Assembly: GCA_902472585.1 (NCBI GenBank) | Contig: CABROM010000001.1 | Coordinates: 221,864-285,863 of the forward strand | Source: an uncultured Clostridium sp. | GTDB taxonomy: Bacteria > Cyanobacteriota > Vampirovibrionia > Gastranaerophilales > Gastranaerophilaceae | Direction of reading: 5' to 3' | Length of the DNA: 64,000 bases | Shown here: positions 3,890 through 46,812 of the stretch, piece by piece | Layout: each line of letters starts with the position of its first letter | Position numbering within the stretch: the stretch's first letter is position 1 | Made by a program: the position numbers and the translations under genes | Notes under the pieces: model-generated | Database searches by the model: none | Told to the model about the DNA's origin: nothing | Seen by the model: only the letters and a program-made list of their open reading frames with translations

Positions 3890-5677
3890 TTACGAATTGA
3901 AAAATGACTTAAACGCTGTGTTATCCTTGACTAATGACCTTGTAAATTCATCATTTAGAACGGTTGATGAAGTTTCGGTCATTGCGGACGAGGAGGATGT
4001 TCGTCCGGATGAGGACGTTGTCGCGTTTAATGAAGCCGAATTATTTTGCTTTTCAGCTTCCAATTTCGCAAGTTCTGCAGCATGTCTTTTATTTATTGTC
4101 GTCCTAGTGTATAATGGGATGAACACTCCTAACGACAACAATGAGAATACAATATTACCGATTTGACAAATTGTTCTCATACGTTTGTCATTATGAGTTG
4201 CAAGTTCATCAGAAGATTTTAAAGATGTATGTTTGGCCCAATGCCAGAATTTTTTCATAAAGCTAGCATTTTTATCAGGTTCAGGTTTCAATCTGTTTAT
4301 CAAATGAATACCATCTTTTTTATGCTTATGTTCCAAAAATGTTGCAATACCTTTAGCAAGGTAATCTCCTAAGAAATAAAAACTTGAGAATGTAGCAATA
4401 TCACGAACTGTTGATTCTCGTAATTCATTTCTATCTTCAGAAGACCCCATACGGCTTGCAAATGTTGCGGTTGAAATTAATCTTGCCTGATCCATAGTAG
4501 GGAAAATACCTTTAAATTGCAAGATATTTTTCAATATAGGTTTGTCCATAAACATAGATAAACCGCATACTCCGAGCATTGAACCAATAGAAATAAATTT
4601 TTGAGCTAAAAGTTCTTTTTTTTCTTTTGGAGATAATTCTTTATGTTCTGTTTCTTTATTAAAATCTTTATAAATCGGAGCACCTTTTCTACCGGATGTC
4701 TTACGAGTAATCCATCTGTTAATAGGCTGCATAGAAATAGCAAGCGGAATAATTAATCCTAAACCGCCAATACTCTTCCAATTTACAAGTTTTTTAGCTC
4801 TATTAAAGTATTTAGAAAGTTCATTTGCATCTGTAATATTTTCTTTTATAACACCACGAATCATTTTAACTGTATCTTCACACATTGATTCAAGGTTGTT
4901 AGAGAAGAAGCCTTTATCACCTTTGAATTTAATATTTTCGGCAATTAATGTTTCTTCTACAATATTACGATAAGCCTTTTTAAACTGTTTTGAACTGTAT
5001 TTATCAGAAGTTACAAGATTTACAAATTCATTTACGGCATTATGAACTTTTTCATTACCGATTTTACCTACAAACTTGCCGTTTGCATCATGTTTTATCT
5101 TAAGAAGTTCATCGAAATGTTTTGTTTCATGTCCATCTACACCGGAAATACTACCAAGTTCATTTCTGAAAGTATTATAAATTTTTTCTTCTTTTGTTGC
5201 TCCTTCAGCTTCTGAATAGAATTTATGAATTTTATCTATTGCATCGCCATTTGCCCAAGTATTAATAAGATTAGACTTCTTGAAACTACCCATAATAGGA
5301 CGGTGTAAAAGAGATGCAACCCCCATAACAATAAAGCTTGGGATTAAGCAGTTAACAATTAAACCTGAAGACTCACGTCTAAAAGCTTCAAAACCAGCAT
5401 AACCGTTTGATTCTTTAGTTTCTACAATCGTACGAGGAATAATAGCTGTTGACAAATCCAATACAGAAACATTTACCATTGGTTGTTTTTCACACTGCTG
5501 AACCAATAAAATTGGCAAATCAGCTAAACCGCCTTTAAATGCCGGATTATTTTTCGCATTATTATCCCTATTTGGGGCACTATTATTATTTTTATTATTT
5601 ACACTTAATAAACTAACTTTTTCTATCATAATATAGTCTGGTTTAAAAACTTCACACCTATTATAACAATGACACAC
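3890..5677 (-). CDS. Hypothetical ~580-595-aa protein, paralog B of the tandem pair (start uncertain; likely ATG MIEKVSLL... near 5629)
   Basis: Paralogous to 2121..3875. A 14-bp gap to the downstream paralog suggests one operon. N-terminal Asn/Lys-rich low-complexity stretch. Confidence 0.65.
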   Translation of the reverse strand: MCHCYNRCEVFKPDYIMIEKVSLLSVNNKNNNSAPNRDNNAKNNPAFKGGLADLPILLVQQCEKQPMVNVSVLDLSTAIIPRTIVETKESNGYAGFEAFRRESSGLIVNCLIPSFIVMGVASLLHRPIMGSFKKSNLINTWANGDAIDKIHKFYSEAEGATKEEKIYNTFRNELGSISGVDGHETKHFDELLKIKHDANGKFVGKIGNEKVHNAVNEFVNLVTSDKYSSKQFKKAYRNIVEETLIAENIKFKGDKGFFSNNLESMCEDTVKMIRGVIKENITDANELSKYFNRAKKLVNWKSIGGLGLIIPLAISMQPINRWITRKTSGRKGAPIYKDFNKETEHKELSPKEKKELLAQKFISIGSMLGVCGLSMFMDKPILKNILQFKGIFPTMDQARLISTATFASRMGSSEDRNELRESTVRDIATFSSFYFLGDYLAKGIATFLEHKHKKDGIHLINRLKPEPDKNASFMKKFWHWAKHTSLKSSDELATHNDKRMRTICQIGNIVFSLLSLGVFIPLYTRTTINKRHAAELAKLEAEKQNNSASLNATTSSSGRTSSSSAMTETSSTVLNDEFTRSLVKDNTAFKSFFNS

Positions 5678-5926
5678 TAATATTAAAAGTCAGGCAAAAA
5701 AAAAATTGCCATAATAACTGCTAATGTTAAGGAGATATTAAGAGCACTTTTTGAATTTTTTATTAAAAATAGATGTATTTTAAACAAAATTTTTATTTTT
5801 TTTGAAAAAAACTCTAAAAAAAATAATCAAAATATGCAAAAATTAAAAAAAAATTCACACAAATTTTTTGTAAATAATTGTAACAATTACGATTAATATT
5901 GAAAAATAGTATAGACAAAATATATA

Positions 5927-7333
5927 CTACACGTAATTTTTAACAAATTCTATGGCATGGTCTTTTGTCAAAACATCACCTGAAATTTGTGCTTCATGTA
6001 AAGCATCCATAATTTCACCAAGACGTTTTGAAGGTTTTATGTTCAATATTTTCATAACCTCATTACCGTCTAACAATTTTGGTAATGGTTTTAAGGTTTC
6101 ACGAGCTTCAAGATAGAATTTTAAAAGCATATTTAATGATGTTATATTACGTTCAACAATTTCATCCGTAATCTCAGGGCCACGTGCAGATAATCTGTCA
6201 GCTTGAGCAAGAATAATTGCATCGATAGCATTTTTATCCATTTTTCTCACATATCTCATCATAATTTTTTCGGTAATCTGAGGAGAATTCATTACATGAG
6301 ACGGATAAATATGATACTTAATCATTGATGAAATATAATCAATCTGTTTATTTGAAAAATGCAGTTTCTTTAATATCTTTATAGACATTTTTGCACCAAC
6401 ATCATCGTGTTTTATAAAACGATGCTTGCCTTCTTCAATTGTCCATGTAGAAAATTTCCCGATATCGTGCATAAATGCAGCAAGCTTCAAATGAGCAAGT
6501 CGAGAAAATCCACCAAAATCGATACGATCTAAATGCTCTTTTACAACATCAGAAGCATTTTCATACAATAATTGAACCTGTTTAACAGTTTCAATCGAAT
6601 GATGAAACAAGTCTAAATGATGATGAGAATTTGGCGGAACTTGTTTCAATTCATTTACAAAAGGAAAGATTTCTTCTAAAAGCCAAGTTTTATTCATATT
6701 TTCAAGAGCTTGATGAGCATACTTTCCACTAAACAGTTTCAAAACCTCATAATTAATTCTTTCAACCGCAGGCTTATGAATTAAATCAACATACTTGCAA
6801 ACAGCGTTAATCGTTTCAGGAGCCAACTGAAATCCGTACAATGCCTGAAATCTGTAAACTCTTAAAAGCCTTAAAGGATCATCTATAAAATTGTGTTCAT
6901 TAACATAATTAATGCACTTATTTTTAATATCCGTAACCCCGCCTGAAATATCAATTACATCACCTGTTCTGATGTTAACGGCAATTGCATTAATAGTTAA
7001 ATCTCTCCTCATCAAATCTTTTTCAATAGAATCACCAACAGGATTTGTTACATCAATATAATTAATTTTGTCAGGCAAAACAAGTCTGTAAATCTTATTT
7101 TCTTCATCTAAAGGTACAAAAGTCGCATTAAATAAATCTGCTAGTTTTAGAGCAAATTCTCTTGCATCTTCATCCATAACAATTATATCTCTGTCAACAC
7201 TTTCAAGCCCCATATAATAATCACGGACAGTTCCACCAACAAGATAAATTTCATTATCAAAATTTTCTGCTATTTTTGAGATTACATCATCCAATTTAAT
7301 TTTTTCTATAATTTTCGAATTCATAAACCACAT
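5927..7333 (-). CDS. cca: CCA-adding tRNA nucleotidyltransferase / poly(A) polymerase family with HD domain
   Basis: The LVGGTVRDYYMG...DRDIIV nucleotidyltransferase motif, followed by the HD-domain motif (FMHDIGK). Confidence 0.85.
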   Translation of the reverse strand: MWFMNSKIIEKIKLDDVISKIAENFDNEIYLVGGTVRDYYMGLESVDRDIIVMDEDAREFALKLADLFNATFVPLDEENKIYRLVLPDKINYIDVTNPVGDSIEKDLMRRDLTINAIAVNIRTGDVIDISGGVTDIKNKCINYVNEHNFIDDPLRLLRVYRFQALYGFQLAPETINAVCKYVDLIHKPAVERINYEVLKLFSGKYAHQALENMNKTWLLEEIFPFVNELKQVPPNSHHHLDLFHHSIETVKQVQLLYENASDVVKEHLDRIDFGGFSRLAHLKLAAFMHDIGKFSTWTIEEGKHRFIKHDDVGAKMSIKILKKLHFSNKQIDYISSMIKYHIYPSHVMNSPQITEKIMMRYVRKMDKNAIDAIILAQADRLSARGPEITDEIVERNITSLNMLLKFYLEARETLKPLPKLLDGNEVMKILNIKPSKRLGEIMDALHEAQISGDVLTKDHAIEFVKNYV

Positions 7334-8051
7334 TTCCTAACGCGACTGTAACTGCAGTATCTGCTTTTAAAATAAGATTACCTAAGGTTAGCATTGCGAC
7401 ATCATTATCTTCAAAAAGTTTAAATTCTCTTTCTGAAAAACCACCTTCAGGACCAATAATTATTATAACATTTTCATTATCTTTAATAGGATTTTCACTA
7501 CAATATTTATGGAGTGTAAGTTCTGCACATCTTTCACAAAATGCAATAACTCTATATCCTTTATCTTTTAATTTTACAATATTTTCTAAATTAGTCAACT
7601 CATAACATGTGGGAATATATGCTCTTTCGCACTGCTTAGAAGCTTCAAACATGATTCTTTGCCATTTTGGGATTTTCTTTTGAATAACAGCTTGACTAAT
7701 AGCGCAATTATCAGTGTAAACAGGATAAACCCCATCCGCACCAAGTTCGGTTGCTTTTTCAATAATTTCTGATTGAGCATCACTCCTGAGCGGACTTTGC
7801 GCAAGATATAATCGAAAATTAAGTTTTCTATCCGAGTGATAAGAATTTTCAACATGAGCCGTTATAACCTTATTTGTAATATCTGTTACAACAGTTTCAT
7901 ACTGAATTTGATTTTCGTCAATAAGAAGTAATTTTTCTCCAACCTTAGTTCTTAAAGATTTTGCAATATGGTTATAATTTTCTTTATCAGAGATTATAAT
8001 ATTATTATCCTTAACATCTTTGGAACTTATAAAAAAATGCGGCATAATCAC
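7296..8051 (-). CDS. rsmE: 16S rRNA (uracil1498-N3)-methyltransferase RsmE
   Basis: RsmE-like N-terminal PUA-like region and C-terminal IIIIGPEGGFSEREF SPOUT motif. Overlaps the cca start. Confidence 0.8.
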   Translation of the reverse strand: MIMPHFFISSKDVKDNNIIISDKENYNHIAKSLRTKVGEKLLLIDENQIQYETVVTDITNKVITAHVENSYHSDRKLNFRLYLAQSPLRSDAQSEIIEKATELGADGVYPVYTDNCAISQAVIQKKIPKWQRIMFEASKQCERAYIPTCYELTNLENIVKLKDKGYRVIAFCERCAELTLHKYCSENPIKDNENVIIIIGPEGGFSEREFKLFEDNDVAMLTLGNLILKADTAVTVALGNVVYEFENYRKN

Positions 8052-17970: not shown

Positions 17971-18039
17971 TAAAATCTCCTTCTTAATATTCTTTCCTAA
18001 CCTTTAATTTTATGCTATCATGAATATAAAGGAAAGACA

Positions 18040-19116
18040 ATGAGTATCATAGCAGATGACAACGATTTTCAACAAAAAAGCATATCCGAAAAGAAAAAAA
18101 ATTCGGTAATTAAATGTGAATGCCTTGAAAATGATAAAAATTTTGAAAATTGTATCCGTCCAAAAACTTTTGACTCGTACATAGGTCAATCTGCTCTTAA
18201 AGAAACCTTAAAAATTTCAATTGCCGCAGCAAAAAAACGAGGACTTCCTCTTGATCACTTACTTTTTTACGGTCCACCGGGATTAGGGAAAACGACACTT
18301 GCAGGTGTAATTGCCGAGCAAATGGGAGTTGATATCAAAATTACATCAGCCCCTGCTCTTGAAAGACCTCGAGATATTATAGGAATTTTAATGTCTTTAA
18401 AGGGTGGCGAAATATTATTCATAGATGAAATTCATAGACTGAATAAAGTTGCGGAAGAAATTTTATACCCTGCTATGGAAGACTTTTTCTTAGATATGAC
18501 AACAGGGAAAAGTCAAACGGTAAAAACTCTTCGCGTACCGCTTCCAAAATTTACACTAATCGGTGCAACAACAAAAGCAGGAGAATTGTCAGGGCCGTTA
18601 CGTGACCGTTTTGGAATTATCCACAGACTTGAATTTTACACAGAAGATGAATTAGCTCAAGTTATAAAAAGAACAGCAGGAATTTTAAATATAGAAATTA
18701 CGGAAGAAGGAGCACAGGCTATTGCAAAAAGATCCCGCGGAACTCCTCGTATAGCAAACAGACTTGTCAAAAGGGTTGCAGATTATGCACTCGTAAAACA
18801 TGACGGAAAAATAACAGAAGATATAGCAAACAAATCACTTGATATCTTAAAAATAGATAATTTTGGGCTTGATAATACAGATAGAAGCCTATTAAGATTA
18901 ATTATCGAAAAATATGACGGTGGGCCTGTCGGAATAGAAACAATTGCAGCAGCGATAGGAGAAGATGTCAGAACAATTGAAGATGTTTGCGAACCTTTCT
19001 TATTACAAGCAGGCTTGTTGCAACGAACACCTCGAGGAAGAAAAGTTTCTCCTGAAACTTACAGACACTTGGGTTACAAAAATTATAAAAACAATGAACA
19101 ACAAAGTTTATTTTAA
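18040..19116 (+). CDS. ruvB: Holliday junction branch-migration ATPase RuvB (with ~40-aa N-terminal extension)
   Basis: [11 protein letters not shown]...[19 protein letters not shown] Walker A plus RuvB-specific motifs. Confidence 0.9.
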
Positions 19117-19196
19117 AAATAATAATTAAATATTATTATTTCTAATGTTATCTATATTTTTTTATGGTAAATTTATGCTTGGTTAGGAGATATTTT

Positions 19197-20342
19197 ATGA
19201 AAAAATTTATCATAATTTTATTTTTATTAATGGGATTTTTTACACAATGCTATGGCGCAGATGACAATAAAACAGTTTTGCCATCTGAAACAGGTATTGT
19301 TGAAAATATTAAATATGAAGATGCAGACGGGCTAAACCAAGGAGAAGAAACGACAAAACAAGTTGTTACCGTAAAGGTTTTAACAGGAGATTTTAAAGGA
19401 ACAGAAAGAATTATTGATAACATGCTAACAGGCAACCCTGCATACGATATAAACCTTTCCAAAGGAGAAAGAGTTGTTTTGCATGTTGAACCGGTTTCTG
19501 ACACGGTTTCAACCGCAGATGATGTAGATTTCTTTATCGCAGATATTAAACGTGATAAACAAATATATATCTTTACAGGCATATTCTTTGCACTGCTTTT
19601 GCTTATAGGCAAGAAAAAAGGTTTAACAAGTATTATTTCAATCATATCTACAATTACACTTGTATTTTTCATGCTTTTACCAATGATATTAAAAGGTTTT
19701 TCACCAATTGCATCAGCAGTTTTAACAGGCATCTTGTCGACAATCATAACGATTTATCTTGTTGGCGGATTAAATTCAAAAAGTTCTTCCGCAATAATTG
19801 GTGCTGCAATAAGCCTTGTTTTTGCAGGCGGACTTTCTATGCTTGCAATATATTTTGCACATCTTACAGGCTTTGCAGGTGAAGAAAACATGTTTTTATA
19901 CACAGCAAGACCAGATTTAAGTTTCACAGGAATTCTTGCAGCCTCAATGATTATAAGCGCATTAGGAGCACTAATGGATACATCGGTATCAATTGCAAGT
20001 ACTGTCAACGAAATTTTTGAAACAGATAAAACACTTTCAATAAAGCAATTATTCAAATCAGGAATGAATGTAGGGCGTGATATTATAGGTACAATGTCAA
20101 ACACACTTATTCTGGTTTATCTTGGCGGAGCATTATCACTTGTTCTTTTATCAAACAATATTGATATGAACAAATTTTTCAACCTTAACCAAGTAGCAAC
20201 AGAAATTCTATCCGCAATCACAGGAAGTATCGCAATTTTATTTTGCGTTCCAATTACGGCAATTATTGCAGCCTACTTAATTAAACGCAGCAGCAATAAA
20301 CAAAAAACTGATTTTAACTTAAATCAAATTGATATACATTAA
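19197..20342 (+). CDS. YibE/F-like integral membrane protein with N-terminal signal/anchor and periplasmic domain
   Basis: MKKFIIILFLLMGF signal, an ~120-aa soluble domain, then ~8 TM helices. RBS taggaga before ATG 19197. Confidence 0.45.
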   Translation: MKKFIIILFLLMGFFTQCYGADDNKTVLPSETGIVENIKYEDADGLNQGEETTKQVVTVKVLTGDFKGTERIIDNMLTGNPAYDINLSKGERVVLHVEPVSDTVSTADDVDFFIADIKRDKQIYIFTGIFFALLLLIGKKKGLTSIISIISTITLVFFMLLPMILKGFSPIASAVLTGILSTIITIYLVGGLNSKSSSAIIGAAISLVFAGGLSMLAIYFAHLTGFAGEENMFLYTARPDLSFTGILAASMIISALGALMDTSVSIASTVNEIFETDKTLSIKQLFKSGMNVGRDIIGTMSNTLILVYLGGALSLVLLSNNIDMNKFFNLNQVATEILSAITGSIAILFCVPITAIIAAYLIKRSSNKQKTDFNLNQIDIH

Positions 20343-20392
20343 TATTTATAATTACTTAATCATACAAAACAAAATTAATATTTTTATAAAAA

Positions 20393-20421
20393 AAGGAGAG
20401 TTAAAAAACTCTCCTTTTTCC
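20393..20421. terminator. Bidirectional terminator between the YibE/F-like gene and convergent metK
   Basis: aaaaaggagagttaaaaaactctccttttt. Confidence 0.75.
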
Positions 20422-20437
20422 AGTTTTTATTATATAC

Positions 20438-21712
20438 CTACTTTGAAGAAGAACAACAATCACAAGCAGCAGACTTTAAAATATCTGCTTTATCTGTTCT
20501 TTCCCAAGGTACATCAATATCAGTTCTGCCCATATGACCGTAAGCAGCTAATAATTGATAGAACTTACCGCCATTTTTAGCAGGCAAACCGCGCAAGTCA
20601 AACTGATTAATAATAGCAGCAGGTCTTAAATCAAAGTATTTGAATACTAATTTAGAAATTTCATCATCAGAAATTTTACCAGTACCGAATGTATCAACCA
20701 TAATTGAAACAGGTTCTGCAACACCTATTGCATAAGCCAATTCAATTTCACATTTATCAGCTAAACCTGCAGCAACAATGTTTTTAGCAACCCATCTTGC
20801 AGCATAAGCAGCAGATCTGTCAACTTTTGTAGGATCCTTACCAGAAAATGCTCCGCCGCCATGACGAGAATAACCACCGTAAGTATCAACAATAATCTTA
20901 CGACCTGTCAAACCGGCATCCCCTTGAGGGCCACCAACAACAAAACGTCCTGATGGGTTTACAAGAATTTTTGTTTCACTATCTAATTTAATAGCTTCGT
21001 GAGCAAAAACTTCATCAATTACATAAGCAGTAATATCTCTTTTTATAATTTCTTGAACTTTATGATTATCAGACACACCGTCAATTTCAGGATCATGCTG
21101 AGTAGAAATCAAAACAGTATGAATTCTTGAAGGTTTTCCATCAACATATTCAACAGTAACCTGAGATTTTCCATCCGGTCTTAAATATTTAAGAATACCT
21201 TGTTTTCTAACCTGAGCTAATCTATGTGATAATTTATGAGCTAAGCTGATTGGCAAAGGCATCAATTCAGGAGTTTCGTTACAAGCGTAACCAAACATAA
21301 TTCCCTGATCACCTGCACCGATATCATCTGTTTCAGAAGATGAAGTATCAGCATTATCAGATCTTGTTTCAAATGCTTTGTTAACTCCGCCAGCGATATC
21401 ACAAGATTGTTCATCAATACTTGTCAAAACTGCGCAAGTATCAGCATCAAAACCACCACCTGAAGCACCTGAATAACCGATATTTTTAATAGTGCTTCTT
21501 ACAACTGATGGGATATCAACATAACAATCAGATGTAATTTCACCGCAAACAAGAGCCATACCTGTTGTAACAGTAGTTTCTGCTGCAACTCTTGATTGAG
21601 GGTATTTTGTCAAAAACTCGTCCAAAATAGCATCAGAAATCTGATCGCATACTTTGTCGGGGTGTCCTTCCGTAACTGATTCGGAAGTGAATAAAAAGTT
21701 TCTTGGTGTCAT
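20438..21712 (-). CDS. metK: S-adenosylmethionine synthetase (with short Cys-rich C-terminal extension)
   Basis: [31 protein letters not shown]. 424 aa, ending ...[11 protein letters not shown]. Confidence 0.93.
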
Positions 21713-41073: not shown

Positions 41074-44000
41074 ATGGATAAGAACACACAATTTGTACCA
41101 CTACATCTTCACAGTGAATTTTCATTACTGGACGGGGCTATAAAGCTAAAAGAACTTTGCAAATTTGCAAAAGAAAATAACATGCCTGCCGTTGCAATTA
41201 CGGATCACGGTGTTATGTATGGTGCACTTGATTTATATTTGGAAGCAAAAGAAGCAGGAATAAAGCCAATTATAGGTTGTGAATTTTATGTCCATAACGG
41301 AGATATTACAGAAAGAGATCCGAATAACAACCCGAGATATCACTTAATCCTCTTAGCAAAAAACAACGAAGGCTACATGAACCTTGTAAAGCTTGCATCA
41401 GATGCGGCTTGCAAAGGATTTTACATGAAACCTCGTATTAACTTTGAATTATTGAAAGAACGCCATGAAGGAATAATTTGCTGTTCAGCATGTTTAGGCG
41501 GCGAGGTTTTACAAAACTTGCTAAAAGGAGATTATGAAGAAGCCAAAGCTGTTGCCAAACGCTATAAAGATTTATTCGGAGACGATTATTATATAGAACT
41601 TCAAGATCACGGACTGGAAGAACAAAAAAGAACTAACCCTGATTTAATTAAAATTGCAAAAGAGCTTGGGATAAAAATGATTATCACAAACGATTCCCAC
41701 TATTTGCGAAAAGAAGATGCCGACTGGCATGATACATTGCTTTGTATGCAAACTCAGTCTATGAAGGATGAAGAAAATCGTTTCCATTTTCCGAATAACG
41801 AATTTTATGTAAAAACAGTTTCTGAAATGCGTGACGCATTCAAATGGATGGATTCTGAAACTTTTGACGAATGTATTAAAAACACAGTCGATATAGCAGA
41901 ACAATGTCATGTAACAATTAAATGGGAAGCTCCTTTACCAGATTTTCCGGTTCCGCCAAATCATACAACCGATTCTTATTTGGAAGAACTTGTAATGCAA
42001 GGTTTAAAAAAGAAATACAAAGAAGAACAAATAACTCCGGAATTAAAAGAACGTGTAAAATATGAACTCGGAATTATTGAAAAAATGGGATTTTCCGCAT
42101 ACTTCTTAATAACTTGGGATTTTATCCATTTTGCAAAAACTCATGATATTCCGGTAGGTCCAGGTAGAGGTTCAGCGGCAGGTTCAGTTGTTGCATACGC
42201 ACTTGATATTACAGATTTGGATCCAATCAGGCACCATCTGTTGTTTGAAAGATTTTTGAACCCTGAACGTTTCAGCATGCCTGATATTGATACAGACTTT
42301 TGTATTGAAAAACGTGGAGAAGTTATCGATTACGTTGTAAAAAAATACGGAGCAGATAAAGTTTGCCAAATTATTACCTTCAATACACTTGCTGCCAGAA
42401 ACGCATTCAAAAGTGTTGCAAGAGTCTTTGGCATGGAGTATGCAAAGAGTAACAAAACAGCATCTTTAATTGAAGATACTATTGAAGGTTCAATGATTGA
42501 AGGTTCAGAACTTAAAAATTTATATGACACTGATCCTGAAATAAAAAGAGTAATTGATACAGCCAAAAATGTTGAAGGTATAAAATGCGGTATCGGTATG
42601 CATGCTGCAGGTGTAATCATTTCTTACAAACCGCTTGATCAAATCGTACCTGTTCAGCCATCTAAAGACGGAATTATTATTACGCAATACCACAGAGAAA
42701 TTTTAGAGAAAATGAAACTTCTAAAAATGGACTTTTTGGGGTTGCGTAACCTTACTATGATTCATAAGACCGTAAAACTCGTAAAAAAATGTCAGGGAAT
42801 TGATGTTGATATAAATCACATTCCGCTCGATGACAAACCAACTTATGACATGCTTGTTCGAGGAGAAACAGTCGGAGTATTCCAGCTTGAATCTTCCGGC
42901 ATGACAAATTTGGTAAAGAAATTAAAACCTGACGTATTTGAAGATTTAGGCGCTTTAGTAGCTCTATTCAGACCTGGACCTTTAGGATCCGGCATGGTAG
43001 ATGACTTCGTAGAAAGAAAACACGGTCGTCAGGCTATTACTTATGCTCACCCAAGATTGGAACCTATCTTAAAAGATACATACGGAACAATGGTTTACCA
43101 AGAACAGATTATGCAAATCTTCCAGGTTATGGCAGATTATTCTCTTGGGCAAGCCGACCAGGTTCGCCGTATGATGGGGCACAAAGACCCTGTTGCCATG
43201 GCTGCTCAAAAAGATAAGTTAATCGAAGGTTCAGCAAAATATGGCATGAAAGCAGAAGATGCTACAAAACTTTTTGATCAAATTCAAAATTTCGCGGCAT
43301 ACTGCTTTAACAGAGCCCATTCATCAGCCTATGCGTTCGTTGCATATCAAACAGCTTATTTGAAATGCCATTATCCTGTTGAATATTTATCAGCTCTATT
43401 ATCAAGTGTTGCGGGAGATCAGGATAAAACTCAAAGCTATATTGAAGAAGCATTGAAATACGGAATAAAAGTTTTACCGCCTGATATTAACAAGTCATAT
43501 CTTGAATACGCACCTGACGGACATAACATAAGATTTGGACTTGCTTCAATTAAACAAGTAGGAGAAGGTGTAATTGAAGAAATTATAAAAGAAAGAGAAG
43601 AAAACGGCGAATATAAATCAATATATGATTATATTAAACGTTTAGATACAAAATGTTCAAACAAAAAAACGCTTGAAGGCTTGATTAAAGCAGGCGCATT
43701 TGCATCAATTGAAAAAAGCAGAAAACAATTGATGGATAATATTGAATATATAACAGCAACAGCATCAAAAGAATCAAAAGCAAAAGAATCAGGACAAGGA
43801 AGTTTGTTTGACATGCTTGGCGATACAGCAGAAATTGCAGATGCGAAATTTCAACTTTCAGGTTCAGATGAAGAATATGATGCAAGAACATTACAAAATT
43901 TTGAAAAAGAATTTTTGGGCTTTTATGTAACAAGTCACCCGCTATCAACTATAAGGGACAAATTACCGTTTCTTATGACTCATAAAATTTCAGAAATTCC

Positions 44001-44553
44001 TGAACTTCCGAATGACAAGATTGTAACTATCTGCGGACTTGTCACTACAATGCGACAAATTCCGACTAAAAAAGATCCGACAAAATTCATACGCTTTTTA
44101 ACAATAGAAGATTTGTCAGGGAAAATAGAAGCCATCGCATTTAACAGAAAAATTGCGGAATACGGAGATATTCTACAAAGCGAACAACGCGTAATTATTT
44201 CAGGCAAAGTAAACAGAAGAAGCGATGACGAACCGCCATCCATTGTTATAGAAAGCGTAAAAACTGTTGATAATTCAAATATATTTACAATAACACTTCT
44301 TGATGATTTTAAATTTGAAGAAATAGTACTTTTAAAAAATATTTTATGCCAACATTCAGGCTCAGATCCAGTTATGTTTAAACTAAAAGATTTTGATACT
44401 GATGTAAAAATCTTATCAGCATCAATTTTCTGGGTTGAAAGTTCAAATGAGTTGGTAAATCAATTAAAAAGACAATTCGGCGAAAGGCTTGAAACCAATA
44501 TAAGTTCTATGGATACAAACGAAAAAGTGGAAGAAGAACCAACCGCTGCATAA
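41074..44553 (+). CDS. dnaE: DNA polymerase III alpha subunit
   Basis: PHP N-terminus (VPLHLHSEFSLLDGAIK...AITDHGVMYGAL), polymerase core, OB-fold tail. 1159 aa. Confidence 0.95.
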   Translation: MDKNTQFVPLHLHSEFSLLDGAIKLKELCKFAKENNMPAVAITDHGVMYGALDLYLEAKEAGIKPIIGCEFYVHNGDITERDPNNNPRYHLILLAKNNEGYMNLVKLASDAACKGFYMKPRINFELLKERHEGIICCSACLGGEVLQNLLKGDYEEAKAVAKRYKDLFGDDYYIELQDHGLEEQKRTNPDLIKIAKELGIKMIITNDSHYLRKEDADWHDTLLCMQTQSMKDEENRFHFPNNEFYVKTVSEMRDAFKWMDSETFDECIKNTVDIAEQCHVTIKWEAPLPDFPVPPNHTTDSYLEELVMQGLKKKYKEEQITPELKERVKYELGIIEKMGFSAYFLITWDFIHFAKTHDIPVGPGRGSAAGSVVAYALDITDLDPIRHHLLFERFLNPERFSMPDIDTDFCIEKRGEVIDYVVKKYGADKVCQIITFNTLAARNAFKSVARVFGMEYAKSNKTASLIEDTIEGSMIEGSELKNLYDTDPEIKRVIDTAKNVEGIKCGIGMHAAGVIISYKPLDQIVPVQPSKDGIIITQYHREILEKMKLLKMDFLGLRNLTMIHKTVKLVKKCQGIDVDINHIPLDDKPTYDMLVRGETVGVFQLESSGMTNLVKKLKPDVFEDLGALVALFRPGPLGSGMVDDFVERKHGRQAITYAHPRLEPILKDTYGTMVYQEQIMQIFQVMADYSLGQADQVRRMMGHKDPVAMAAQKDKLIEGSAKYGMKAEDATKLFDQIQNFAAYCFNRAHSSAYAFVAYQTAYLKCHYPVEYLSALLSSVAGDQDKTQSYIEEALKYGIKVLPPDINKSYLEYAPDGHNIRFGLASIKQVGEGVIEEIIKEREENGEYKSIYDYIKRLDTKCSNKKTLEGLIKAGAFASIEKSRKQLMDNIEYITATASKESKAKESGQGSLFDMLGDTAEIADAKFQLSGSDEEYDARTLQNFEKEFLGFYVTSHPLSTIRDKLPFLMTHKISEIPELPNDKIVTICGLVTTMRQIPTKKDPTKFIRFLTIEDLSGKIEAIAFNRKIAEYGDILQSEQRVIISGKVNRRSDDEPPSIVIESVKTVDNSNIFTITLLDDFKFEEIVLLKNILCQHSGSDPVMFKLKDFDTDVKILSASIFWVESSNELVNQLKRQFGERLETNISSMDTNEKVEEEPTAA

Positions 44554-44615: not shown

Positions 44616-44687
44616 GCGGGGGTAATTCAGTGGTAGAATGCCTCCTTGCCAAGGAGGATGTCGCGAGTTCGAGCCTCGTCTCCCGCT
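44616..44687 (+). tRNA. tRNA-Gly (anticodon GCC)
   Basis: gcgggggtaattcagtggtagaatgcctccttGCCaaggaggatgtcgcgagttcgagcctcgtctcccgct. Cloverleaf fits (7-bp acceptor with one G-U, D-stem attc/gaat, 5-bp anticodon stem, T-arm gcgag/ctcgt). No CCA encoded. Confidence 0.9.
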
Positions 44688-44693
44688 AATTAA

Positions 44694-44725
44694 AAAAGGA
44701 TTGGATTTATTCCAGTCCTTTTTTA
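44694..44725 (+). terminator. Terminator after tRNA-Gly(GCC)
   Basis: aaaaaaggattggatttattccagtccttttttaa. Confidence 0.7.
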
Positions 44726-44756
44726 ATTTATTGAGATACAGGTGAGAACTTATTTT

Positions 44757-44875
44757 GAGTTCGAGCGAACTGCGAGCAGAGGGCGAAGACTTGACTGCGT
44801 ATGGCTTTAGCCACTTAAGCAGACAAGCGTAGACCTGTTTAACGCGAGCAGGTCAAGACAGCCTCGTCTCCCGTC
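44757..44875 (+). other. Split partial duplicate of the tRNA-Gly 3' end (T-loop ... acceptor) interrupted by a ~100-nt structured insert
   Basis: gagttcgagc (44757-44766) and gcctcgtctcccg (44861-44873) together reproduce cgagttcgagcctcgtctcccg of the adjacent tRNA-Gly. The intervening sequence has internal complementarity (cttgac/gtcaag, tggct/agcca, gacctg/caggtc) and a direct repeat gcgagcag x2. Confidence 0.6.
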
Positions 44876-44949
44876 ATCATTAGATGGAGCTTTTTTATTT
44901 TACTAAATTATTAAAATACAGACTAATATTCACATTCCGTTCACTTAAT

Positions 44950-45610
44950 TTATTTTCTTGGAACATATAAACAAGCGTACTTATCAAAATAAAACAATAT
45001 ACGTCCGTCTTTTAACAGAACTGAATACCCTCCAGGTCTTTTATAAGGCATATTTTTTATCAATACAGATTTACCTGTTTCAGGATTGAATATTTCAGTT
45101 CGATTTTCATATATACCATCTCCTGAAAAATTACCGGATTTTTCAATATTTTGACCTCCATTTACTAAAATATTTCCATCTGGTAATAATGTCATGTTAT
45201 ACAAATAAACTGATCCTCTCGGAACAATTAATTTCCCTAGTTCAACAATTTTAACCAATAAATTTCGTGTTCAAACTGTTCTGAAGGTTCTTTAAATAAA
45301 GGTGCTATAAACAAAATTTTATTTTTGTTTAATCCAATAGCTTTAGTATTATCATGCTTATTAATCGATGTATTGAGAGTTGCAATTTTCTTGAATTTAT
45401 TAGTATTAGGATCAAAATTTATAATATTATCATCAGAAATTATAAATACTCTCCGTCATTAAATTGAACAGGCATCCCCAAATGATAATCAGTATTTATT
45501 TTTTCAAAATGCCCGTTTTTATAATCTAAAGCATAAACATTAGATGGAATTAGCAAATAAAAAAATAATATTACTATTAATAAAAATATTCTTTTATAAC
45601 CCAGCATCAT
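44950..45610 (-). pseudogene. Frameshifted remnant of a secreted Kelch-like/beta-propeller repeat protein gene
   Basis: Minus-strand ATG at 45610 gives a signal peptide MMLGYKRIFLLIVILFFYLLIPSNVYA.... The reading frame is then broken into at least three pieces; the last (44950..45258) carries ...LLPDGNILVNGGQNIEKSGNFSGDGIYENRTEIFNPETGKS... Kelch-like motifs. Confidence 0.6.
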
Positions 45611-45754: not shown

Positions 45755-45829
45755 GCGGAAGTAATTCAGTGGTAGAATGCAACCTTCCCAAGGTTGACGT
45801 CGCGGGTTCGAGTCCCGTCTTCCGCTCCA
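45755..45829 (+). tRNA. tRNA-Gly (anticodon CCC), CCA encoded
   Basis: gcggaagtaattcagtggtagaatgcaaccttCCCaaggttgacgtcgcgggttcgagtcccgtcttccgctcca. Clean cloverleaf. Confidence 0.88.
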
Positions 45830-46706: not shown

Positions 46707-46812
46707 TTGTTAGAAGGGTATGAACCACATTTTCAGGGTCAAGCATGAGTGGCTTGAGGCTTGAGTATTTTGCAATAAGATGTAACCTAGCAAAATACAA
46801 AAATTGTATTAT

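Follow-up and report, generated by a model that had tools for sequence, protein, structure and literature searches.

Small gene-less units at tRNA 3' ends in gut Melainabacteria, described from a 188-bp insertion behind tRNA-Gly(GCC)

A split copy of the tRNA-Gly 3' end

The window, the whole 64,000-nucleotide stretch of DNA that was analyzed, carries an intact tRNA-Gly(GCC) gene downstream of dnaE (41074-44553); its remaining genes have housekeeping functions. The closest named DnaE is that of "Clostridium sp. CAG:768," a human-gut melainabacterium. Pfam scans of 30 window ORFs revealed no integrase, transposase, TnpB, or Cas protein, and no such gene lies in the units described below, in agreement with a preliminary description of this DNA that had noted no integrase nearby. 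The features of the locus are as follows.

44616..44687, + strand: intact tRNA-Gly(GCC), called by ARAGORN and by the Rfam tRNA model (63.5 bits); no CCA is encoded in the filled allele
44672..44687, + strand: first 16-nt repeat, AGCCTCGTCTCCCGCT, tRNA positions 58-73, the left insertion border (direct repeat; comparison of empty and filled alleles)
44688..44728, + strand: hairpin AATTAAAAAAGG...CCTTTTTTAATT, read as a cassette-borne replacement terminator (inverted repeat, 18-nt arms, 94% complementary)
44729..44742, + strand: conserved box TATTGAGATACAGG, the start of every unit (found in all units)
44746..44762, + strand: hairpin H1 (GAACUUA / UGAGUUC), predicted in every unit, whose 3' arm is the start of the T-arm copy
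44757..44766, + strand: piece 1, GAGTTCGAGC, equal to tRNA-Gly positions 51-60 (exact repeat; counterparts in the units of other tRNAs)
44767..44859, + strand: structured GC-rich core of 93 nt, ending ...GCGAGCAGGTCAAGAC (consensus fold; covariance model R1)
44860..44873, + strand: displaced original tRNA 3' end, the second occurrence of positions 58-71, cut by a 16-bp deletion (exact repeat)
44874..44896, + strand: rest of the original tRNA terminator (TCATCATTAGATGGAGCTTTTTT), equal to the flank of empty alleles and terminator-like
46709..46790, + strand: relic of a related unit, of which the 5' part is left behind tRNA-Tyr (by comparison with L009 17061-17200 and L008)

Two segments of the tRNA are repeated exactly: GAGTTCGAGC at 44665-44674 and 44757-44766 (tRNA positions 51-60), and AGCCTCGTCTCCCG at 44672-44685 and 44860-44873 (positions 58-71). 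Each occurs twice in the 64-kb window, and two matches were obtained in 0 of 100 shuffles; the split copy of the tRNA 3' end reported in the preliminary description is thus real and not due to chance. Its distances need a small correction: the first fragment does reappear behind the tRNA, after 69 nt (44688-44756) and not 70, and the insert between the fragments measures 93 nt and not 94, the fragments overlapping by AGC and jointly repeating tRNA positions 51-71. The insert has a GC content of about 50%, compared with 32% for the window, and when folded alone it is marginally better than its shuffles (z about -1.9). The second AGCCTCGTCTCCCG fragment is 14 nt long in the window and extends to 16 nt (AGCCTCGTCTCCCGCT) in relatives; L004 and L021, for example, retain AGCCTCGTCTCCCGCT+CCATAAAG... 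at the right repeat.

The element following the tRNA, previously described as its terminator, is indeed an inverted repeat with 18-nt arms (44688-44705 / 44711-44728); it does not appear to be the native tRNA terminator, however, but a replacement carried by the inserted unit. Its stem varies in sequence between units while complementarity is kept (L051, L056, L069, L086, L088, and L110). The same holds for the upper stem of H1, which is variable yet complementary; in a unit at tRNA-Ala both arms have changed jointly, to GAACC / GGTTC. Piece 1 is thus the 3' arm of a conserved hairpin within the unit.

Empty sites, filled sites, and related units

Relatives of the window were gathered as contigs encoding exactly its DnaE, and five allele states were found among them. 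At the empty sites (L006/L016 and L014) the tRNA ends ...CTCCCGCT-CCA-TAAAGAAGCTTCATCATTAGATGGAGCTTTTTT, the 3' end of the gene reading ...CCCGCTCCA. Filled alleles with an intact right border (L004/L012) are longer than the empty site by exactly 188 bp, which comprise 172 bp of unique DNA, devoid of any ORF, and one copy of AGCCTCGTCTCCCGCT, so that 16-nt direct repeats bound the insertion. The window allele is filled but has lost 16 bp, CTCCATAAAGAAGCTT, directly past the right repeat, and L001 and L011 carry an additional 4-nt deletion within the insert. In L002/L013 the same tRNA-Gly holds another island, which bears an integrase. Contigs with a second, near-identical DnaE variant (P0007) add further filled haplotypes, with an internal deletion of 53 nt and with SNPs in each of the tRNA-derived pieces. 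The same exact-border polymorphism is seen in a second species, in which L069 is filled and L068 and L075 are empty.

The comparison with relatives called for by the preliminary description thus yielded exact empty sites, at 100% DnaE identity, and its reading of the repeats as an insertion at a tRNA 3' end is borne out. The extent of the insertion is another matter. It had been placed as an insert of about 94 nt in an older duplicate; since a filled allele is distinguished from an empty one by all 188 bp, however, the segment from 44688 to the second repeat is one insertion, and the inserted unit comprises a new 3' end, a terminator, a hairpin, and the core. From the alleles, we infer that 44688-44859 together with one 16-nt repeat entered as a single event and supplied the tRNA with both its present 3' end and its present terminator. 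A tRNA gene without CCA should be tolerable, because the window encodes a CCA-adding enzyme (5927-7333, - strand). The deletions and SNPs also agree with the earlier suggestion of a decayed element: given the 4-nt and 53-nt internal deletions, the loss of 16 bp from the flank, and the SNPs in each tRNA piece, the copy in the window's species is most likely no longer maintained and is decaying.

Related units occupy the tRNA-Gly locus in lineages at 68 to 96% DnaE identity. At 95 to 96% identity the site is empty in four clades (P0079, P0019, P0089, and P0058). A 177-nt version is present in the P0033 and P0036 clades, alongside empty alleles in the latter (L054 and L055). In L051 the right repeat is degenerate, and in L056/L059 a truncated unit is followed by a 7.3-kb block of redox genes and no second repeat. 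We considered whether this block might be a full-length element and rejected the idea, as it holds no recombinase. A protein-anchored scan of JGI metagenomes returned 58 loci (42 to 92% identity), L069 among them, with units of 140 to 330 nt in L086/L087, L088/L089, L093, L097, L099, L112, and L117. L099 has two units in tandem, the repeat proximal to the tRNA being perfect and the distal one degenerate. L086 has one unit and, after it, only the box that begins a second, which is broken off by a Tn7-like element; a box-like T(A/G)TTGAGAT also lies upstream of the TnsB-site repeats in the Tn7-like elements of L008 and L086.

The distribution of unit types is discordant with host phylogeny: the window type is found in L069 (84% identity over the DnaE C terminus) and L099 (71%), whereas the P type occurs in hosts that are much closer. 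The window-type core retains, between species, about 78% identity and a GC content of 50 to 55% in a 32% GC genome, whereas nearby intergenic DNA is unalignable and the truncated L056 copy has drifted to AT richness. On these grounds, intact units are either under constraint or recently spread.

A search with nhmmer and with R1, a covariance model built from seven units, located the same scaffold in four more places. One unit lies behind tRNA-Ser(GGA) in L110 and one behind tRNA-Ala(GGC) in L123, a 43-kb IMG/VR contig (IMGVR_UViG_3300027542_000775). L123 has a second unit at an apparent prophage end, adjoining an endolysin gene; this unit terminates in a tRNA 3' end and has a partly deleted copy of its repeat just upstream. 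The fourth, in a strain of the window's own species (L009, 17061-17200; R1 match at E = 7e-4), is a decayed unit behind tRNA-Tyr. The relic at 46709-46790 of the window is likewise a member of the family and is separate from the tRNA-Gly unit.

In the units at tRNA-Gly, tRNA-Ser, and tRNA-Ala, the tRNA pieces match the cognate tRNA and are split at position 57/58. The 3' copy runs from position 58 (56 in some units) to the discriminator at 73, and the second piece, covering positions about 50-57(60), lies 76 to 220 nt upstream of it as the 3' arm of the hairpin; at tRNA-Ala it reads GGTTCGA, with GAACC as the opposing arm. Because the rule holds for three tRNA species, the split copy, divided at the center of the T-arm dyad, is a defining feature of the family, and not the nested, one-off scar suggested earlier. 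The alternative offered at the same time, a miniature tRNA-targeting element, comes close to the appearance of the family. The island in L002/L013 and the prophage in L123 use the same tRNA positions, with no detectable sequence in common with the unit.

Searches farther afield gave little. R1 had no match in 0.5 Mb of unrelated viral loci. Exact scans with unit-specific 16- to 24-mers found nothing in viral contigs or in JGI metagenomes, and in species-representative genomes only one chance match, to coding sequence from Bathyarchaeia (L007). When the 188 bp were compared with phage and plasmid collections by BLAST, the AT-rich terminator alone gave matches. Two 16-mer scans of viral sequence gave 142 loci, among which nhmmer confirmed L123 alone, and R1 found nothing further on 57 of them; the repeat of unit B of L123 had no second copy on scanning.

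Predicted fold of the core

RNAalifold, applied to seven units from four tRNA contexts, predicted a core of 19 base pairs. Over these pairs, 91.6% of the cells were paired as observed, compared with 74% after shuffling and 30 to 40% with the 3' partner slid, and 12 of the 19 pairs were compensatory, compared with 4.9 in shuffles; these values were reached in 0 of 500 shuffles, and although the contrast is inflated, the structure having been taken from the same alignment on which it was tested, the gap is still large. Conserved G-U pairs place the fold on the tRNA-sense (+) strand. R1 matches the window at 44741-44867 with 115 bits. The fold applies to window-type (W-type) units, with a core of ∼95 nt, and R1 misses the P, Q, and long subtypes.

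The insert had been called structured in the preliminary description, and covariation across related units supports that. The folding and Rfam checks proposed there gave mixed results: the fold is backed by comparison with relatives, but the single-sequence fold is marginal, and there is no Rfam match. With Rfam 15, only tRNAs reached the gathering score, and nothing credible was found at E ≤ 10 over the window insert or the L031 unit. A sigma-70-like promoter was not found upstream of the core in the window. A long-range helix, GACCTGC / GCAGGTC, was dropped as not significant in single-sequence shuffles, the alifold consensus taking its place; a closing stem that would join the box to the repeat was set aside too, since it never varies and is thus uninformative.

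Origin of the unit and comparison with known systems

We propose that the segment is one 188-bp unit, a non-autonomous, gene-less cassette inserted by conservative recombination at a 16-nt tRNA segment, and we give this reading an even chance. The family to which it belongs, units of ∼190 to 330 bp at tRNA 3' ends in gut Melainabacteria, is previously undescribed. A unit brings, in order, a 58-73 copy of its own that restores the tRNA, then a replacement terminator, the box, the hairpin that copies positions ∼50-57, and a core of 76 to 220 nt, folded on the tRNA-sense strand and abutting the displaced original 58-73 segment. It would move as a small circle made of these same parts, the 58-73 copy, terminator, box, hairpin, and core, with a junction expected to read ...GGTCAAGAC|AGCCTCGTCTCCCGCT|AATTAAAA..., that is, GGTCAAGAC-AGCCTCGTCTCCCGCT-AATTAAAAAAGG. 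Entry would follow the logic of phages and ICEs, by conservative recombination between the 16-nt copy of the unit and the tRNA gene, with a recombinase supplied in trans, for example, by a prophage or island that targets these tRNA positions. The two partners have the segment to the right of the crossover in common, and the products of the reaction would therefore again be substrates; the tRNA would thus remain a target, which would allow tandem arrays with the newest copy proximal to the tRNA, and precise loss would be possible, leaving empty alleles. The exact borders, the rebuilt tRNA, the arrays, and the co-location with the integrase island of L002 and the prophage end of L123 would all fit such a circle.

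Several observations sit less comfortably with this cassette. Recombinase genes were found neither in the units, nor beside most of them, nor anywhere in the 64-kb window, and for that reason a helper has to be assumed. Classical integrases work poorly on a double-stranded circle of 188 bp. A double-stranded attP arm leaves unexplained both the strong, strand-specific covariation of the core and the hairpin with its copy of tRNA positions 50-57, which differs from one tRNA to another. In the P0033 and P0036 clades, the tRNA-adjacent terminator resembles the native flank of empty alleles, and insertion downstream of the terminator fits equally well there. Finally, the occurrence of one scaffold at five tRNA species is easier to account for by targeting that is read from nucleic acid than by five integrase specificities. 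It is conceivable, if rather unlikely, that the units form a new class of mobile structured-RNA cassettes anchored to the tRNA T-loop, in which the folded core and the pieces 50-57 and 58-73 together specify the target. They would act either as a guide-like RNA or as a folded single strand imitating the tRNA gene, and would serve a recombinase or transposase whose gene lies elsewhere.

Two nested events, as in the preliminary description, might have given the same arrangement: an integrase-type element with a 23-nt identity block (tRNA positions 51-73), since reduced to ∼70 bp, and a separate small element that later entered the redundant second copy at the center of the T-arm dyad (position 57/58). 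Removal of 44767-44859 plus AGC does leave a clean 92-bp insertion flanked by GAGTTCGAGCCTCGTCTCCCGCT, and a split that always falls at 57/58, with 0 to 3 nt of overlap in different tRNAs, is what a site-specific inserter would be expected to produce. That only the second copy is hit would follow from the lethality of an insertion into the functional copy. The intermediate, however, whether a core-less unit with an uninterrupted second tRNA copy or a core elsewhere, was seen in no lineage examined. On this model the box and the 5' hairpin arm would come from the first element, yet they and the core are conserved as one at all the tRNAs, the hairpin arm covaries with piece 1, and the alleles differ by the entire 188 bp. 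We therefore hold a nested origin to be fairly improbable.

A remnant of guide-RNA-like homing, in which the core is the scaffold and the tRNA-matching tail the spacer, in the style of type V, TnpB, or CAST systems with the effector elsewhere or lost, is in our view unlikely, for all its points of resemblance. Type V-K CASTs find tRNA genes by means of a 17-bp spacer, which adjoins a GTN PAM and has ∼13 bp of repeat in front of it (Hsieh & Peters, bioRxiv 10.1101/2021.02.06.429022). In the units of three tRNAs, the tail is 16 to 18 nt long and starts 0 to 2 nt past the universal T-loop motif GTTCG, different tails are joined to the same scaffold, and that scaffold is conserved and structured on the sense strand, with CAAGAC(R) directly before the tail. 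Moreover, tnsA-less Tn7-like elements with tnsB and tnsC lie downstream of tRNAs, in or beside units (L008 and L086). The window insert, however, sits exactly at the repeat border, the equivalent of the protospacer end, and not 60 to 66 bp past the PAM; neither the units nor the loci nor the window yielded a Cas12k, TnpB, or IscB; Rfam omega-RNA motifs gave no match (E ≤ 10); and no sigma-70-like promoter was found ahead of the core. Domain scans of the loci and the window likewise showed no OrfB or Y1 transposase domain. The unit and the window also lack the tnsB-tnsC-tniQ and cas12k genes of an element that would encode such a guide, and no cas12k was seen in the Tn7-like elements of L008 and L086. 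The reported hosts of type V-K CASTs are cyanobacteria only (PMC12416283), which also speaks against this reading, and PDB comparison of the Tn7-like proteins (L008 and L086) gave nothing near ShCAST. A direct link to type V-K CASTs was accordingly discarded: the L008 TnsB, TnsC, and 186-aa proteins have no ShCAST-like PDB matches. Manual reading of the Tn7-like insertion distances in L099, L086, and L008 (64, 72, and 95 nt) gave no single rule, and an 814-aa ORF beside the L088 unit, considered as an effector, proved to be a Cys/Asp-rich surface-type protein with no domain or PDB matches.

The unit might instead be a small RNA gene, resident behind tRNA genes and tRNA-like at its 3' end, that acts as a decoy, regulator, or processing substrate, its position reflecting function and not mobility. 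The covarying fold on the tRNA-sense strand, the terminator behind the second copy, and the retention of 50 to 55% GC and ∼78% identity, in a 32% GC genome whose other intergenic DNA near the locus is unalignable between hosts, would all suit such a gene. Its presence or absence within a species with exact, repeat-bounded borders, the tolerance of deletion variants, the tandem copies, the copy at a prophage end, and the failure to find a promoter would not, and we consider this reading quite doubtful. The idea that no insertion took place, the similarity being due to chance or to a neutral local duplication, has nothing in its favor beyond the small size and is refuted for practical purposes by exact repeats that are unexpected by chance, by the empty sites, and by homologous units at other tRNAs with their own matching pieces.

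If the fold of the proposed cassette is a recombination site or a guide, the units would represent a minimal and possibly programmable form of DNA insertion at tRNA genes; if nucleic acid targeting proves true, this would be programmed tRNA-gene insertion in a nonphotosynthetic sister lineage of the cyanobacteria. If the unit is only an attP relic, it would be a clean example of how such relics persist, form arrays, and alter tRNA 3' flanks (CCA and terminator), and also a caution for island-finding and tRNA annotation tools. Phages and islands classically land at tRNA genes, and tRNA fragments serve to detect them; the insertion described here is 20 to 100 times smaller than known examples, yet it is a conserved unit across many lineages. 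Literature searches on Melainabacteria with Tn7-like elements, and on TnpB with the tRNA T-loop, returned nothing relevant.

Williams, in 2002, reportedly distinguished T-loop and 3'-end sublocations of tRNA integration sites. Fragments of tRNA genes are a recognized footprint of integration (PMC9897764), and the units share with tRNA-integrating prophages, ICEs, and islands the tRNA 3'-end repeats that flank the insert, the rebuilt tRNA, the displaced 3' end, and the empty sites. Those reported so far, however, are kilobases long and carry an integrase, whereas the unit here is 188 bp and gene-less, with a covarying folded domain next to the right repeat and a second tRNA piece (50-57) before it. 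CIMEs likewise have att-like flanks, no recombination genes, and tandem or prophage neighbors, as in L099, L086, and L123; they are kilobase-scale deletion derivatives of ICEs, however, whereas the unit has no identifiable parent and is conserved across five tRNAs. Integron cassettes (attC × attI) resemble it in being small and non-autonomous with a folded, strand-specific site-like structure, and in serial insertion at a fixed site with the newest copy proximal and precise loss; unlike them, the unit has no integron integrase, attI, ORF, or attC consensus, and its repeat is a tRNA segment. The truncated repeat-spacer of type V-K CASTs offers a 16- to 18-nt tRNA match next to the GTN of the T-loop, a repeat-like tail with structured RNA before it, a host of cyanobacterial lineage, and tnsA-less Tn7-like elements at tRNAs in the same genomes; it differs in that the units have no cas12k, lie outside the Tn7-like element, and are inserted at the border and not 60 to 66 bp away. 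As in split, intron-containing, or permuted tRNA genes, tRNA sequence is broken within the T-loop by a structured insert. Here, however, the functional tRNA is intact upstream, and neither ARAGORN nor Rfam calls anything at the interrupted copy, which cannot be a tRNA because positions 1-49 are missing: upstream of piece 1 lie only the terminator and the box. What is known, then, is repeat-flanked insertion at a tRNA 3' end. What is new is a small, gene-less, conserved unit, with a split copy of the T-arm and 3' end around an undescribed structured core, which forms arrays and is found at five or more tRNA species, in Gastranaerophilales and in a single phage-like contig.

Neighbourhood of the cassette in the window

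Window 44950-45610, minus strand: gene downstream of the cassette locus
Window 45755-45829: tRNA-Gly(CCC), neighbour of the cassette locus, compared with L008, L019 and L028
Window 46709-46790: 5'-part relic of a related cassette, directly after the tRNA-Tyr terminator

The tRNA-Tyr relic has a more complete yet decayed counterpart in another strain (L009, 17061-17200). In L003, L004 and L006 the product of the gene downstream of the cassette locus is 443 aa long and shows a faint Kelch match. The gene appears split into short ORFs in the window, among them one of 102 aa (44950-45258), and likewise in L005/L009; the short ORFs indicate that it is probably a pseudogene in the window. The distance between the two tRNA-Gly genes varies with the presence of this Kelch-like gene, from about 90 nt to more than 1 kb. 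CCA is encoded in the window's tRNA-Gly(CCC) gene, but not in that of several close relatives.

Islands and insertions at cassette sites

L002 6614-9292 (the same as L013 13614-16292): integrase island, integrated in the same tRNA-Gly as the cassette
L099 6167-8140: 2-kb insertion splitting the conserved box of a second cassette unit
L059 13700-21000: 7.3-kb block, P0053 clade

The integrase island, which differs from the cassette, occupies the tRNA-Gly of a strain whose DnaE (the protein encoded upstream of the locus) is identical. It encodes a Phage_integrase protein of 361 aa and a DUF6973 protein, and the tRNA-Gly 3' end that it supplies, ...CCTCGTCGTTCCCGCCA, is mismatched to a normal acceptor stem. 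The L099 insertion holds a 508-aa ORF, which has no match in Pfam or NCBIfam, and both of its junctions carry duplicated ACTGAG. In the P0053 clade, defined by DnaE, the distal cassette part and the original tRNA flank are replaced by the 7.3-kb block, which encodes a flavodoxin-like protein, a cyclophilin-like protein, MerR, four aldo-keto reductases, an FGE-sulfatase and an acetyltransferase, with neither a recombinase nor a second repeat.

Cassette units on a contig classed as viral

L123 2520-3850, minus strand: two cassette units

This 43-kb IMG/VR contig (IMGVR_UViG_3300027542_000775) is viral by classification. One unit follows a tRNA-Ala(GGC) gene. The second comes immediately after an endolysin gene, and its terminus is the 3' end of a tRNA. 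Because host-like genes (an SDF symporter) come after it, the endolysin-side unit probably marks a prophage-host junction.

Tn7-like elements

L008, about 17990-21572: Tn7-like element 3' of tRNA-Tyr
L086/L087, about 5280-7985: Tn7-like element 3' of tRNA-Gly

Both elements are inserted inside or adjoining cassette units, and that of L008 interrupts the tRNA-Tyr cassette. The left end of the L099 insertion resembles the sequence that immediately precedes the ends of both Tn7-like elements (L008 and L086). Their TnsB (Mu-transpos_C/rve) is about 565-585 aa long, their TnsC (AAA_22/TniB) is short, at 226-242 aa, and a third product has 186 aa; no TnsA was seen. They have no PDB match of the ShCAST (type V-K CAST) kind, and their tnsB-proximal end is marked by TTTTTGCAC repeats.
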